A stretch of DNA of 32,000 nucleotides from an uncultured archaeon (GCA_964648855.1 CAZYLT010000013.1:1-32000), one strand, 5' to 3'. Positions 11,851-15,922 are shown, counted from the first letter of the stretch. A program made the numbers and translations. Notes: generated from the sequence alone by a model not told the origin.

Positions 11851-12987
11851 TCATGGTCTGAGTTCTACCATCGCCTCTTCGGCATACCCAGTTATTACAC
11901 GAATATAGCCTGAGAGGAGAGCATCAACTTCAGAGGATCCCGTATCAACACGGAGGGGTGTCCCTAGCCCAATAGACGCCAGTTTACCTGGAGTTGCCAG
12001 AATTATGATCCCGCTACGACCTACATTTCGGATGACCTCGGGACTGAACTGCTGATTACCTCTGCCAAATACGAAGCCTTGCCCACCAATAGGAGTGACG
12101 ACGATCGAGGCTTTATTTTCCCGAAGGAATCCAAGTAAGTCATCTTCATTGGCATCCTTGTGTATGACGCGGCCGTCTTTGACCACATCTACGCCAAGGA
12201 GCGTCTTTTTGATGTTGAGAACATCAGCTACGGCTTTTACGGTGCTTCCTGGACCAAGAAAATACATACCTGAATCCATTTTCTCAACGAGATATTCTGC
12301 AATATCTTTCTGCTTTTGCCGCTCATCTGGAATTGCAGGGGTACCACTCTTTGAAGGTTGAACAAGGCGTTTTCTGTACGGAGTCTGCATATAACCATAG
12401 AGTCTGGCGGAAACTCGGTCGGACCTGAACGCTTCTTCATCTATGTCCATTACCTCACCCTCTCGTAGGATGGCATCTCCTTGAAGGTAAAGCAAGGCCA
12501 GTTTCCCCGCTCTCTTCGGATTGATTGCGAAAACACTCGAATGAATTTTTACTCCGGTGGGAATTCCCAAGACAGGTGTGTCAGTTCCTACTACCTTAAA
12601 GACATCTCTTGCAGTACCATCCCCACCTGCAAATAGAATCAAATCAACTTCTCTCTTCAGGAATTCAGTACATGCTGAAATTGTATCTTCTGCTGTTGTG
12701 TTTTCTGAGCCGATTGTGCCGACAACTTCGGGTTGGAATCCTGCAGACCGTGTTTCCGCCTCGCCCATTTCAGCGGGAGGTGTTATGACTTGCAATTCAT
12801 CCTGTATTGGGCGTAGCATCTCCAGTGCTTCAGTGGCACGTTTGGGGGATTGCTTTTCTGCGCCAAGCTCAATTGCCCGCTGCAGAATATCCGTCCCATC
12901 TGTCCCCTTGAGACCTACTCTACCCCCCATTCCTGCAATTGGGTTCACAACCACACCGAGTTTCTTTTTTTCAGCCAGTTTTGTCAC
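11851..12987 (-). CDS. ATP-NAD kinase / AcoX-like family protein (COG3199)
   Basis: VNPIAGMGGRVGLKGTDG, FAGGDGTARD, GIPTGVKIHSSVFA and GGQGFVFGRGNQQ. GTG start overlaps the gcvPB stop (GTGA). Confidence 0.9.
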   Translation of the reverse strand: MTKLAEKKKLGVVVNPIAGMGGRVGLKGTDGTDILQRAIELGAEKQSPKRATEALEMLRPIQDELQVITPPAEMGEAETRSAGFQPEVVGTIGSENTTAEDTISACTEFLKREVDLILFAGGDGTARDVFKVVGTDTPVLGIPTGVKIHSSVFAINPKRAGKLALLYLQGDAILREGEVMDIDEEAFRSDRVSARLYGYMQTPYRKRLVQPSKSGTPAIPDERQKQKDIAEYLVEKMDSGMYFLGPGSTVKAVADVLNIKKTLLGVDVVKDGRVIHKDANEDDLLGFLRENKASIVVTPIGGQGFVFGRGNQQFSPEVIRNVGRSGIIILATPGKLASIGLGTPLRVDTGSSEVDALLSGYIRVITGYAEEAMVELRP

Positions 12988-14537
12988 CCATGCTTCTTAC
13001 GGTACGCTCGCCAAGTCATTGCCCACTTCGATGGATCTGAAGTTGCTGAGTGATCCACCTTGGCCACAGCGCAATTATGTGGTGCTTGTCTGATAACTTC
13101 AGGCGAATTATATGCTTCCTCTGCGACCTGCGCTATGACATGAGCAAATCTGTCTAGGTCTTCTTTTGATATTGATTCAGGAGGCTCCGGAGTAAAGGGT
13201 TCAGGGAATACCCAAGGCTCATGGCTTGTGAAGATACGTTGTACACCATAGTCTACGATTCTTCGATTGAAATCCTCTATGCCTATTCCAGTTTCTCTTT
13301 CCATCACTTCTAGAGAGAAACGACCTTCTTGCATTCTATATGGGTGTTCCTCAAACCAGGGTAGTGTTATTCCTTTCAATCCTAGGATTTTGCTTATGAG
13401 GTAGTTGTTGTTAATTACAGCCACTTCTGAAACTTCCTCAAGACCTTCTGCGCCCATTGACATGATCCAAGCGTAAGCACGAATGATATTAGGTATCACT
13501 CCGTAGAAGTCGCCTATTTTTCCAATGGTACTGGGTCGATCATAGTTCAGGAAGTAGTTTTCTCCATTGAAATCGACAGTGGGAACCGGCAGATAGTCAA
13601 CCAGTTCCTTACTAGCACCAAGCGGAGCACTCCCAGGACCGCAGGAACCGTGAGGGGTAGAGAAGGATTTGTGAAGATTGAAGTGACACAAGTCTGCACC
13701 TACATCACCTATTCGAACTTTACCCAAAATGGAGTTAGCATTTGCTTGATCGATTGCCACAAGACCTCCTGCGTCATGTACAATATCGATGTATTCCTTG
13801 AGATTTTCATCAAAGACTCCTGTATCATATGGGTCCGTTATCATTAGACCAGCTGTTTTTTCTGACACAGCCTCTTTGAGCGCTTCCACGCTTGGAATAC
13901 CTGTATCTTTTTCAGGATATAACATGGTCACGCTATACCCGGCAACTGCTGGTGAGCCAGCATTACACGGATGTGAGAGTACGGTCGTAATTATATCATC
14001 ACGCTGTTCACCCTCTCCATGGGCTTTGTGATACGCTTGCATAATCCGGGCATTAGCAAAAACTGCATGTGCTCCACCCCGTGGCTGGAATGAAAATTTC
14101 TCCAATCCAGCGATCTCACAGAGCCATTCATTCAGGTTGTAGATTACTTCCAAGATACCTTGAATCGTACTCTCATCTTGGAAGGGATGCAGATTTGTCA
14201 CTGCTGGAGAACGAGCAAGAGCTTCATTGACCTTAGGATTGTATTTCATGGTGCACGTGCCTACACCCGCGTTTATACCTGAGTCAGTTCCAAAATTCTG
14301 CTGGGATAGACGAATAAAATGCTTGGTGACGTCGGGTTCGGAAACCTCCGGTAGAGCTGGCGGGTTTTTCCGTGCAATATTCCGTGGTATGTTCGCAGAT
14401 GCATCTCCCACCTCTTTGTTAATTCGTTCCGAAGCTTTAGGGATGAGCATGCCTCTTCGTCCAGGTCTGCTTAGCTGTTGTAAGAGCGGCTCATTCCATC
14501 TGACAGCCTGATAGCCAGTATCATTGGTATCTTCCAT
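12984..14537 (-). CDS. gcvPB: Glycine dehydrogenase (decarboxylating) subunit 2-like, divergent PLP enzyme
   Basis: LPEVSEPDVTKHFIRLSQQN, GTCTMKYNP, PLP-lysine motif HFNLHKSFSTPHG and AVINNNY. Confidence 0.88.
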   Translation of the reverse strand: MEDTNDTGYQAVRWNEPLLQQLSRPGRRGMLIPKASERINKEVGDASANIPRNIARKNPPALPEVSEPDVTKHFIRLSQQNFGTDSGINAGVGTCTMKYNPKVNEALARSPAVTNLHPFQDESTIQGILEVIYNLNEWLCEIAGLEKFSFQPRGGAHAVFANARIMQAYHKAHGEGEQRDDIITTVLSHPCNAGSPAVAGYSVTMLYPEKDTGIPSVEALKEAVSEKTAGLMITDPYDTGVFDENLKEYIDIVHDAGGLVAIDQANANSILGKVRIGDVGADLCHFNLHKSFSTPHGSCGPGSAPLGASKELVDYLPVPTVDFNGENYFLNYDRPSTIGKIGDFYGVIPNIIRAYAWIMSMGAEGLEEVSEVAVINNNYLISKILGLKGITLPWFEEHPYRMQEGRFSLEVMERETGIGIEDFNRRIVDYGVQRIFTSHEPWVFPEPFTPEPPESISKEDLDRFAHVIAQVAEEAYNSPEVIRQAPHNCAVAKVDHSATSDPSKWAMTWRAYRKKHG

Positions 14538-15922
14538 TATAGAACCTCCTCTAGTGTTTCGACCAGTCTATCGATGTCTTGCTGCGAATGGACCTCAGTC
14601 ACACAATACAACGCTGTTTCATTTAGTTCAGGAAACATTCCTTTCAGATTCTTTCCTCCTTGAATCCCATGCTGAAGTAATTCCTTGTTGACATGTTCTA
14701 CAGACTTCTTGGACTTGTTGAAGTCCACAGTGAACTCCTTGAAGTGAACTGCATCAAAGGATGGGGCATTAACGCCCCCTATCTCAGATAGCCTCTTCAT
14801 AGCATAATGTGACTTCTGCATAATGACCTCTGCCAGTTCCCTGATGCCCTGAGGTCCTAGCAAAGATAGGTACACAGCAGCAGTGATTGCCCATAACGCT
14901 GTAGCAGTTCCTGTGGAAGTATTGGCCTTGTCGCGTGCGCAGAAAATAGTCCGTTCAGGCATTATGTAAGCAAAACCAAACTCACCCTCTCGGGCGGTGT
15001 CAGTCAGGGTTATCATTCGATTGCCACTAGCTGCAACATATTCCTCTTCATCTTTGAAGGCAAGAAAGCCCATTAAAGCTCCTCCGAAATACGTTGGAAT
15101 TCCAAGAGGTTGCCCCTCGCCACAAACTATGTCAGCACCGTATTTTCCAGGAGCCTCCAAAAGACCTAAAGATATAGGTTCAACACCCACCATGAATAAT
15201 GCATTGTGATCGTGTGCAATTTCGCCTATCTTAGGGGCATCAGCTTCCAGGTAGCCAAGGTAGGTGGGATTTTCGATATAGACAGCTGCAGTTTGATCTG
15301 AAACCCTCTCCTCAACTTCTTCAAGCACAACTTGACCGTCCTCCGCGAAGAAAGGAATTTCATCTATTGTTGCCAAGCCTTCACAATGAGCCTGCATGAT
15401 AGCCCGTTTCTCAGGGCTCATAGATGCAGGTACTAGGATTTTGTTTCGACCAGTTATGGCTGCTGCCATTCTAGCCGCGTCACCACAAGCCGTTGACCAA
15501 TCATACAGAGGAAATCCTACACCATCAAGGCCAACCAACTCGCCAATCATACTCTGAAACTCAAACAAGACCTGATACCTACCGAGATCAGTATACACAT
15601 CTCCAGTGTACGCAGTAACAAACTCAGACCGTGAGTTAATCTCGTTGCACACTGATGGAATGTAATGAGGCCAACATCCCGCACCCAGAAAGGAAAGAAG
15701 ATCAGATCCATATTTGTTCTTGGACAGGATACCTGATATGGTGCTAACCACTTTTGCCTCAGAGGCGGAGGGAGGAATATTGAGTGGCCTCTTCAGCATG
15801 ATATCATCGGGTACACAGGAAAAGAGCTCTTTTACGCTCTGCACGCCGATTTCTTCAAGCATCTCCTTCTTGATTTCTGGCGCGCTATTAGGAATGTATG
15901 GATGTACTGGCATTGACCTCAC
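14537..15922 (-). CDS. gcvPA: Glycine dehydrogenase subunit 1-like, divergent
   Basis: HPYIPNS, SFLGAGCWPHYIP, FEFQSMIGELVG, GADIVCGEGQPLG and HFKEF. 1-nt overlap with gcvPB. The start may be ATG 15913. Confidence 0.88.
   Translation of the reverse strand: MRSMPVHPYIPNSAPEIKKEMLEEIGVQSVKELFSCVPDDIMLKRPLNIPPSASEAKVVSTISGILSKNKYGSDLLSFLGAGCWPHYIPSVCNEINSRSEFVTAYTGDVYTDLGRYQVLFEFQSMIGELVGLDGVGFPLYDWSTACGDAARMAAAITGRNKILVPASMSPEKRAIMQAHCEGLATIDEIPFFAEDGQVVLEEVEERVSDQTAAVYIENPTYLGYLEADAPKIGEIAHDHNALFMVGVEPISLGLLEAPGKYGADIVCGEGQPLGIPTYFGGALMGFLAFKDEEEYVAASGNRMITLTDTAREGEFGFAYIMPERTIFCARDKANTSTGTATALWAITAAVYLSLLGPQGIRELAEVIMQKSHYAMKRLSEIGGVNAPSFDAVHFKEFTVDFNKSKKSVEHVNKELLQHGIQGGKNLKGMFPELNETALYCVTEVHSQQDIDRLVETLEEVL

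Follow-up and report, generated by a model that had tools for sequence, protein, structure and literature searches.

Sequence analysis of a 32,000-nt stretch of DNA from an uncultured archaeon (GCA_964648855.1 CAZYLT010000013.1:1-32000; hereafter the window) revealed a pair of adjacent genes encoding homologues of GcvPA and GcvPB, the subunits of the two-subunit glycine decarboxylase (P-protein), in which the cofactor site is retained and the hallmark substrate-site motifs are replaced. The best reading of these sequences is that they encode an intact alpha2beta2-type pyridoxal 5′-phosphate (PLP) enzyme that would be a neofunctionalised paralogue of the archaeal glycine decarboxylase. This enzyme very probably acts on a substrate other than glycine. 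In the 3.1-Mb Asgard genome to which it belongs (G000; hereafter the host genome), the window is contig C13; this genome carries Topo VI and SAMP1 genes and is thus archaeal in character. The pair and the gene downstream of it are as follows.

14537..15922, minus strand: GcvPA-like alpha subunit (P0001, hereafter PA), 461 aa, intact open reading frame (ORF), NF001696 match and alignment to 1wyt_A
12984..14537, minus strand: GcvPB-like beta subunit with the PLP site (P0002, hereafter PB), 517 aa, intact ORF, NF003346 match and alignment to 1wyt_B
11851..12987, minus strand: COG3199/NAD-kinase-fold (AcoX-type) protein (P0003), Pfam PF01513 and PF20143

The genes overlap, with the stop codon of PA and the start codon of PB sharing TAATG, and the stop codon of PB and the GTG start of P0003 sharing GTGA (12984-12987). 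For PA, the ATG at 15913, which has GGTGAGG 4 nt upstream, is a likelier start than the GTG at 15922; the latter, the start of the longest ORF, falls within this Shine-Dalgarno-like element.

Both subunits belong to the GcvPA/GcvPB families in sequence and fold (NF001696, NF003346, and Pfam GDC-P). P0001 scored 488.9 bits against NCBIfam NF001696 (cut-off 364) and P0002 scored 539.5 bits against NF003346 (cut-off 441), the corresponding values for the canonical copies of the same genome being 547.7 and 730.7 bits. In HMMER alignments, P0001 and P0002 matched the Thermus thermophilus P-protein chains 1wyt_A (E = 7.6e-70) and 1wyt_B (E = 1.5e-85), respectively, over their full length. The alpha subunit has no PLP lysine of its own and supplies remodelled loops to the pair.

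Replacement of substrate-site motifs

Relative to 1wyt_A, the alpha subunit had YTG-DVYTDLG (residues 105-114, with a one-residue deletion) in place of YTPYQPEVSQG, GFPLYDW in place of NASMYDG, and PERTIFCARDKANTSTGT in place of REQYIRRAKAKSNITT; the remodelled loop ERTIFCARDKANTSTGT lay at about 323-339. Relative to 1wyt_B, AGAHGE was changed to GGAHAV, SAHGSNPAT to LSHPCNAGS, DGAN to DQAN, and PHGGGGPG to PHGSCGPG in the beta subunit, in which CTMKYN and NLHK were retained. Altogether, the canonical motifs YTPYQPE, REQHIRR.KATSNIC, AGAHGE, SAHGTNP, NPNTLG, DGAN, PHGGGGPG, and YFP were all replaced in the pair, as were the near-invariant REQHIRREKATSNIC and HEF. The remodelled residues of the beta subunit were A158, V159, P190, C191, D238, T239, Q264, S298, C299, W357, R406, H439, and E440. 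The PLP-site residues Lys290 (NLHK), the stacking His189, Asp263 (DQAN), and His296 were retained and are conserved in the clade to which the pair belongs (see below), and the threonine of CTMK was also kept.

A preliminary description of positions 12984-15922 had quoted such replacements against canonical motifs of the family. Every quoted replacement was present in the alignments to 1wyt_A and 1wyt_B, and the retention of the PLP lysine and of CTMKYN was likewise seen in the alignment to 1wyt_B. The canonical motifs it quoted were found to be near-invariant in a control set of 78 GcvPB and 67 GcvPA canonical sequences from Bacteria and Archaea, in the form YTPYQPE(I/V)SQG, REQHIRREKATSNIC, AGAHGE, SAHGTNPAS, TNPNTLG, DGAN, and PHGGGGPG. 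A contig search for related loci yielded, through CTMKYNPK, mostly canonical GcvPB, which were used as controls, and few new variant loci.

Alignment columns at least 93% conserved among the canonical sequences were taken as near-invariant, which gave 128 columns in PB and 79 in PA. The PB of the window kept 86 of the 128 and changed 42, compared with 117 kept by the most deviant canonical sequence; the PA of the window kept 53 of the 79 and changed 26, compared with 72 kept. The most columns changed by any canonical sequence were therefore 11 in PB and 7 in PA. The relatives of the pair comprise two subtypes, V1 (the window type) and V2. In PB, the substitutions G158A, G190P, T238D, Y357W, V406R, Y439H, and M449T were fixed in 126 of 126 V1 sequences and G264Q was present in 124 of 126; all eight were common to V2. 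Because the replacement residues are fixed across relatives, they point to selection for a new residue set, not to decay. Decay to a pseudogene was ruled out, as the frames are intact and the new residues are conserved throughout the clade.

The changed positions were also compared with the site classes (active site, tunnel, and H-protein interface) assigned in a homology model of human GLDC (PMC7259800, S5 Table). Three positions listed there as active site or active region differed in the pair (Y164 to D, C382 to G, and G728 to Q), and so did two further classed positions (R373 to A and Y817 to W). W897, described as active site in the main text of the same paper, is aligned with the canonical YFP segment, which is HEP in the pair. 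The classed positions Y161, T559, G618, H651, T698, H753, K754, and H760 were kept. Overall, the remodelling covers the substrate site, the tunnel, and the surface of the C-terminal domain.

As far as sequence can tell, the earlier claim of an intact PLP enzyme holds: the frames are open, Lys290, His189, Asp263, His296, and the CTMK threonine are present, and the new residues are conserved in more than 120 relatives. The claim of a different and probably larger substrate fared unevenly. A different substrate is strongly suggested by the presence of a canonical pair in the same genome, by the changes at GLDC active-site and tunnel positions, and by the distinct gene context. A larger one is not established, because the gain of charged and polar residues (Asp, Glu, Arg, His, and Gln) is as marked as the loss of bulk.

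Canonical and variant pairs in Asgard genomes

The window pair is not the host genome's own glycine-cleavage P-protein: a canonical gcvPA/gcvPB pair was found on contig C2, with 37% (PA) and 41% (PB) identity to the window pair, and the variant falls in a separate clade in the tree. The single gcvT, distant from the variant pair, lies with gcvH (C2:92792-93151) on C2, elsewhere than the canonical pair, and lpd (lipoamide dehydrogenase) adjoins E2 on C47. Another gcvH, an orphan that retains the lipoyl-lysine motif, is present at C5:73791-74147 (L018:7744-8184); FAD_binding_4 and CCG/4Fe-4S (GlcD/GlcF-like) genes were observed near it.

Among 151 Asgard genomes, 18 had a variant-type PB (47–100% identity to that of the window, motifs verified), and 16 of these also had a canonical copy (37–42% identity). 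The two variant-bearing genomes in which no canonical copy was found were 87% and 91% complete. Within the window's own family, the variant occurred only in G000 and G037 among 27 genomes.

The variant clade and its origin

At least 120 clusters (90% identity level) were 60–97% identical to PB. They came from metagenome-assembled genomes (MAGs) of Lokiarchaeota, Thorarchaeota, and Bathyarchaeia and were often named "glycine dehydrogenase subunit 2"; further variant members were found in Hadarchaeota, Holophagaceae, and Aminicenantes. DQAN and/or SHP[CS][ND] occurred in approximately 42 of the best 150 representatives (50% identity level), and further subtypes appear among these. The signature of the variant beta subunit is SHP[CS][ND], NP.D[TS]G or DPYDTG, DQAN, R-x-E-x-x-R-[FY]-S, and SH[EH]P, and that of the alpha subunit is Y[TA]G-[DE].Y.D together with the loss of REQHIRR. 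The window pair has LSHPCN, DPYDTG, DQAN, RMQEGRFS, and SHEP in beta and YTGDVYTD in alpha.

Trees were built separately for PA and PB with FastTree (LG model with gamma rates) and a bacterial root. V1 and V2 together were monophyletic with support 1.0 for both subunits, on stems of 0.51 (PB) and 0.32 (PA) substitutions per site. The clade was nested in archaeal GcvP as the sister of Bathyarchaeota canonical GcvP (support 0.93 for PB and 0.76 for PA), and in PB the mean distance from the shared ancestor was 1.15 for the variants versus 0.41 for the canonical sisters. This nesting and the long stems indicate a duplication inside archaeal GcvP followed by accelerated change, although the exact placement may be affected by long-branch effects. 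Nesting among glycine decarboxylases had been named in the preliminary description as speaking against a new substrate; the pair is indeed nested in archaeal GcvP, but as a separate, fully supported, long-branched clade. No published study of the variant GcvP-like clade was found in the literature searched.

A glycine decarboxylase after all, serving as an isozyme for other conditions or in the reductive, glycine-forming direction, would be consistent with this derivation from archaeal GcvP, with the intact PLP machinery, with scores above the NCBIfam GcvPA and GcvPB equivalog cut-offs for both proteins, and with the fact that canonical pairs are also accompanied by COG3199 (see below). Nevertheless, we regard it as very unlikely. 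Residues invariant in bacterial, archaeal, and human enzymes are replaced, several of them at positions of nonketotic hyperglycinaemia disease; coexistence with a canonical pair is nearly constant; and the context is one of amino-acid uptake and aldehyde oxidation, not of one-carbon metabolism.

The COG3199 kinase-fold partner

The conserved module consists of PA, PB, and COG3199, the last being encoded directly downstream of PB in 16 of the 23 variant loci, including the window. The GGDGT and NPxAG motifs of P0003 are intact. A comparison of P0003/COG3199 with PDB sequences gave no match, its Atlas label was only "ATP-NAD kinase family", and nothing relevant was found in the literature searched on AcoX/COG3199.

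COG3199 is not specific to the variant, being present in 120 of the 151 Asgard genomes. The host genome has a second copy (C1:359701-360819; L115:7696-8853), 50% identical to that of the window. This copy adjoins a gene of the S-adenosylmethionine hydroxide adenosyltransferase family and formate-tetrahydrofolate ligase, a link to one-carbon metabolism. COG3199 was also considered as the sole NAD kinase and rejected; two further NAD-kinase-fold genes are present on C12 and C3 of the host genome, so it need not be the housekeeping enzyme.

In at least 18 Asgard genomes from at least 9 families, COG3199 adjoins gcvH or canonical gcvPB. It lies beside canonical gcvPB in G002, G015, G036, G054, G058, G123, and G148, and beside gcvH in G001, G013, G035, G029, G048, G018, G039, G044, G053, G112, and G007; some of the COG3199-gcvH pairs are operonic, and one overlaps by 4 bp. 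A Syntrophomonadaceae MAG has an operon of gcvT, gcvH, gcvPA, gcvPB, an unknown gene, and genes for a radical-SAM protein, LplA/B, Lpd, and COG3199, with the COG3199 start overlapping the Lpd stop. On a Hadarchaeota contig, COG3199 lies downstream of gcvH, gcvPA, and gcvPB in the same orientation. These associations are located as follows.

L054:14387-16908 and L134-L142: COG3199 with canonical glycine-cleavage/lipoyl genes

Since COG3199 also occurs in operons of the canonical glycine cleavage system (GCS) and of lipoyl metabolism, the kinase-fold partner was most likely inherited, not recruited for a new substrate. Such inheritance gives indirect support to a variant enzyme that still uses a lipoyl carrier in trans. 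In the COG3199 family, lipoyl-dependent systems may have an accessory that has gone unrecognised.

The coupling of PB to a kinase-fold gene with both motifs intact could also be explained by a hydroxylated or otherwise functionalised amino compound. By analogy to PduX/CobD, to ethanolamine kinase with its phospho-lyase, and to hydroxylysine kinase with its phospho-lyase, COG3199 would phosphorylate the substrate or product, the PLP enzyme would act as a decarboxylase or phospho-lyase on the phospho-ester, and short-chain dehydrogenases/reductases (SDRs) would interconvert the hydroxyl and oxo forms. The new conserved Arg406, His439, and Gln264 could bind phosphate, SDRs flank V2 and some V1 pairs, and class-III aminotransferase-family genes lie near two V1 loci. 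However, COG3199 is near-universal in Asgard genomes, and its other copies stand with canonical gcvH, gcvPB, and lpd, including the complete GCS-lipoylation operon. SDR genes are absent from the Thor-type loci, and several V1 loci have no COG3199. This route is therefore considered quite unlikely.

Gene neighbourhood

The other genes identified around the module in the window were as follows.

10051-10536, minus strand: Lrp/AsnC regulator (Pfam)
10683-11603, plus strand: EamA exporter (Pfam)
16014..17048, minus strand: AmDH4/2,4-diaminopentanoate-dehydrogenase-like NAD(P) amine dehydrogenase (P0004; Pfam DAP_DH_C)
17136..18365, minus strand: Liv-type (HAAT family) substrate-binding protein (P0005; Pfam Peripla_BP_6)
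18568..20553, plus strand, divergent: LivH and LivM permeases (Pfam BPD_transp_2 twice; syntenic in Thor-type relatives)
20733..22700, minus strand: tungsten-type aldehyde:ferredoxin oxidoreductase (AOR; Pfam AFOR_N and AFOR_C)
23144..24599, plus strand: LivG and LivF ATPases (Pfam ABC_tran and BCA_ABC_TP_C)
24612..25832, plus strand: M24 creatinase/prolidase-fold protein (Pfam Creatinase_N and Peptidase_M24)

On the minus strand, the order of transcription is the Liv-type substrate-binding protein, the AmDH4-like protein, PA, PB, and COG3199; on the divergent side, the order is livH, livM, AOR (opposite strand), livG, livF, M24, and DUF3830. This arrangement recurs in Thor-type relatives, namely L012/L013, L112 (GCA_002825465.1), the P0013 contig, and G037. 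The PDB relatives of P0005 are Leu/Ile/Val-type binding proteins, and its gene is syntenic in L012 and L112. AOR lies beside the variant pair in the window, G037, GCA_002825465.1, the P0013 contig, and G025, and in none of 77 canonical loci. Its position between livM and livG on the opposite strand, odd as it is, was kept in L112, L131, and the P0013 contig.

In V2 loci, the order is SDR, SDR, PA, PB, COG3199, and a gene for a 316-aa protein, among housekeeping genes. The 316-aa protein (cluster c7; L125:11910-12860 and orthologues) follows COG3199 in one Asgard genus and had no Pfam or NCBIfam match. NCBIfam gave the SDRs generic names (FabG, BudC, or glucose dehydrogenase). In Bathyarchaeia-type V1 loci, PA and PB are accompanied by an SDR and/or iron-containing alcohol dehydrogenase (Fe-ADH) gene and by peptide ATP-binding cassette (ABC) transporters, and COG3199 is absent. 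Overall, homologues of AOR, FabG/BudC-like SDR, or Fe-ADH flanked 18 of the 23 variant loci versus 2 of the 77 canonical loci.

Neither gcvH nor gcvT was found in cis with the variant pair in the window. In L112, a Thorarchaeote, a gene for a DGC-domain/GcvH fusion (279 aa) lies 3.5 kb downstream of the variant module and could be a dedicated H-like carrier; a search of the host genome for such a fusion found none, DGC genes being present on C21 and C59. In the same region of L112 (14036-15980), a ferredoxin-like gene and two further DGC-domain genes were observed.

The M24 gene keeps its place by the liv/variant cluster in L012 and L131. Its product scored 104.7 bits against NCBIfam PepQ and 96.7 against DoeA (ectoine hydrolase), both far under the cut-offs. 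Next to the M24 gene comes one for a DUF3830 cyclophilin-like protein (the two genes together spanning 24612-26292), to which no NCBIfam family name was assigned. The Lrp/AsnC and EamA pair also flanks the module in L112 and the P0013 contig.

The AmDH4-like gene and the reaction of the pair

The P0004 gene precedes PA by 100 bp and shares its strand. It scored 232.9 bits against NCBIfam Ord, under the cut-off of 400; its closest solved structures are 7xdu and 6g1m/6g1h, and native amine dehydrogenases (nat-AmDHs) match more weakly. An AmDH4-like gene was present in 3 of the 23 variant loci (the window, L112, and L131) versus none of the 77 canonical loci.

The one-strand order of substrate-binding protein, AmDH4-like protein, PA, and PB, with AOR nearby, would suit a plain PLP decarboxylase in which lipoyl transfer has been lost and the carbanion is protonated, so that a primary amine is released; the AmDH4-like enzyme would deaminate this amine to an aldehyde, which AOR would oxidise to an acid. 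The same gene set in G037 and GCA_002825465.1 is in keeping with such a pathway, as are the lack of conservation at the predicted H-interface residues and the lack of gcvH and gcvT nearby. On the other hand, with the AmDH4-like gene in only 3 of 23 loci, most lineages would be without an enzyme for the deamination. P0004 resembles the carboxylate-recognising 2,4-diaminopentanoate dehydrogenases more closely than the plain-amine nat-AmDHs, and the retention of COG3199, otherwise tied to lipoyl/GCS operons, is left unexplained. A plain decarboxylase is thus considered unlikely.

The AmDH4-like enzyme of Thor-type loci and the SDRs of V2 and Bathyarchaeia-type loci would each turn an amine or a hydroxyl into an oxo group. 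Their product could then be a 2-amino-4-oxo acid on which the pair performs a changed PLP reaction, either a C–C cleavage by a thiol (lipoyl or coenzyme A), resembling kynureninase or 2-amino-4-ketopentanoate (AKP) thiolase, or an aminotransferase or lyase reaction. In favour of this, class-V aminotransferases have a fold related to that of GcvP, and Pfam Aminotran_5 matches were obtained. This proposal is purely inferential, in that the sequences carry no mark of a new reaction type and the decarboxylase-type architecture and the His/Asp/Lys arrangement are unchanged, and it is highly improbable.

With regard to the substrate, the AmDH4-like dehydrogenase suggests that the Thor-type substrate, or its precursor, has a second (gamma) amino or oxo group. 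The nearest relatives of P0004 are of the carboxylate-recognising type and the pocket has gained Asp, Glu, Arg, His, and Gln, which together hint at a polar substrate in Thor-type clusters, perhaps a diamino or oxo amino acid.

A possible lipoyl-dependent, aldehyde-forming route

The conservation of AOR inside the uptake cluster implies that the imported amino acid gives rise to an aldehyde, and the best reading of a non-glycine enzyme is that the carbon skeleton of its substrate would end as that aldehyde. In the route envisaged, a non-glycine amino acid would be imported by the adjacent Liv-type ABC system, form an external aldimine at Lys290 of PB, and be decarboxylated. As happens in the parental glycine decarboxylase, the lipoyl arm of an H-protein would then take up the carbanion; this H-protein would come from another locus, two gcvH genes and lpd being present in the genome. 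As there is no T-protein partner, the 1-aminoalkyl-dihydrolipoyl adduct would collapse to aldehyde and ammonia. The aldehyde would be oxidised to the acid by the AOR of the cluster, or by SDR, Fe-ADH, or aldehyde dehydrogenase in other lineages, and the lipoyl group would be re-oxidised by the L-protein (Lpd). The COG3199 protein would be an inherited accessory of lipoyl and glycine cleavage systems. The route as stated is plausible but tentative.

Several points weigh against this lipoyl-dependent route. No gcvH is present in the window, and gcvH copy number showed no correlation with the variant in the 151 Asgard genomes, which have 2–3 copies throughout. The GLDC-H interface residues of the docking model (human Q366, T367, I372, and R373) are not conserved in the variant, and the equivalent of human K376 is lost in V2. 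Q264, the neighbour of the PLP-binding Asp, occupies a "tunnel" position, where it could change the access of the lipoyl arm. The usual archaeal 2-oxoacid route forms ATP at the substrate level, which the proposed route does not; the latter offers the kinase no obvious task; and Bathyarchaeia-type V1 loci have no COG3199. Moreover, the 23 variant loci are not phylogenetically independent and represent about five independent contexts.

A broader proposal is that the pair belongs to a T-protein-independent, lipoyl-H "amino-acid cleavage system" converting a non-glycine amino acid to CO2, ammonia, and an aldehyde, with COG3199 as a general accessory of lipoyl systems, including the canonical archaeal GCS. 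In this combined form it is doubtful.

Significance and comparison with known systems

The number EC 1.4.4.2 should not be assigned to the pair, because it lacks the invariant motifs and does not constitute the P-protein of the genome. The variant clade is a large, conserved, and widespread family that, judged by its motifs, databases mislabel as glycine cleavage. NCBIfam equivalogs and JGI names call the pair GcvPA/GcvPB, so that metabolic reconstructions can miscount glycine-cleavage or reductive-glycine capacity; this affects Asgard, Bathyarchaeia, Hadarchaeota, and some bacterial MAGs. New here are the measurement of the remodelling by comparison with a large canonical set, the derivation of the clade from within archaeal GcvP, the association of COG3199 with canonical GCS, lipoylation, and Lpd operons, and the difference in oxidoreductase neighbours between variant and canonical loci. 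The family offers a tractable case of the re-tooling of a highly constrained component of a multi-enzyme system. If the lipoyl-dependent, aldehyde-forming route is true, anaerobic amino-acid catabolism would have a new way of supplying AOR, and COG3199/AcoX proteins would gain their first functional handle.

The pair resembles the GcvPA/GcvPB glycine decarboxylase in full-length homology, split subunits, overlapping genes, and retention of the PLP lysine, the stacking His, the Asp, CTMK, and the PH-G-rich loop. It differs in the loss of the invariant substrate-site and tunnel motifs, in having no gcvT or gcvH in cis, and in its context of uptake and aldehyde oxidation.

AcoX, the COG3199 kinase-fold protein of the lipoyl-dependent acetoin dehydrogenase operon acoXABC, shares with P0003 the NAD-kinase/diacylglycerol-kinase fold, the GGDGT motif, and a tie to lipoyl-dependent systems. 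Unlike AcoX, P0003 is coupled to a P-protein paralogue and not to E1/E2/E3.

P0004 has the fold of 2,4-diaminopentanoate dehydrogenase (Ord), AmDH4, and the native amine dehydrogenases, with full-length alignment to 6g1m/6g1h and 7xdu. It is different from the Ord of ornithine fermentation in falling below the equivalog cut-off, and oraSE and ortAB are absent.

In archaeal peptide fermentation of the Pyrococcus type, the aldehydes oxidised by AOR arise from 2-oxoacid decarboxylation. The system described here is similar in that its uptake cluster contains a conserved AOR of the tungsten type, and different in that the proposed source of the aldehyde would be a PLP enzyme.

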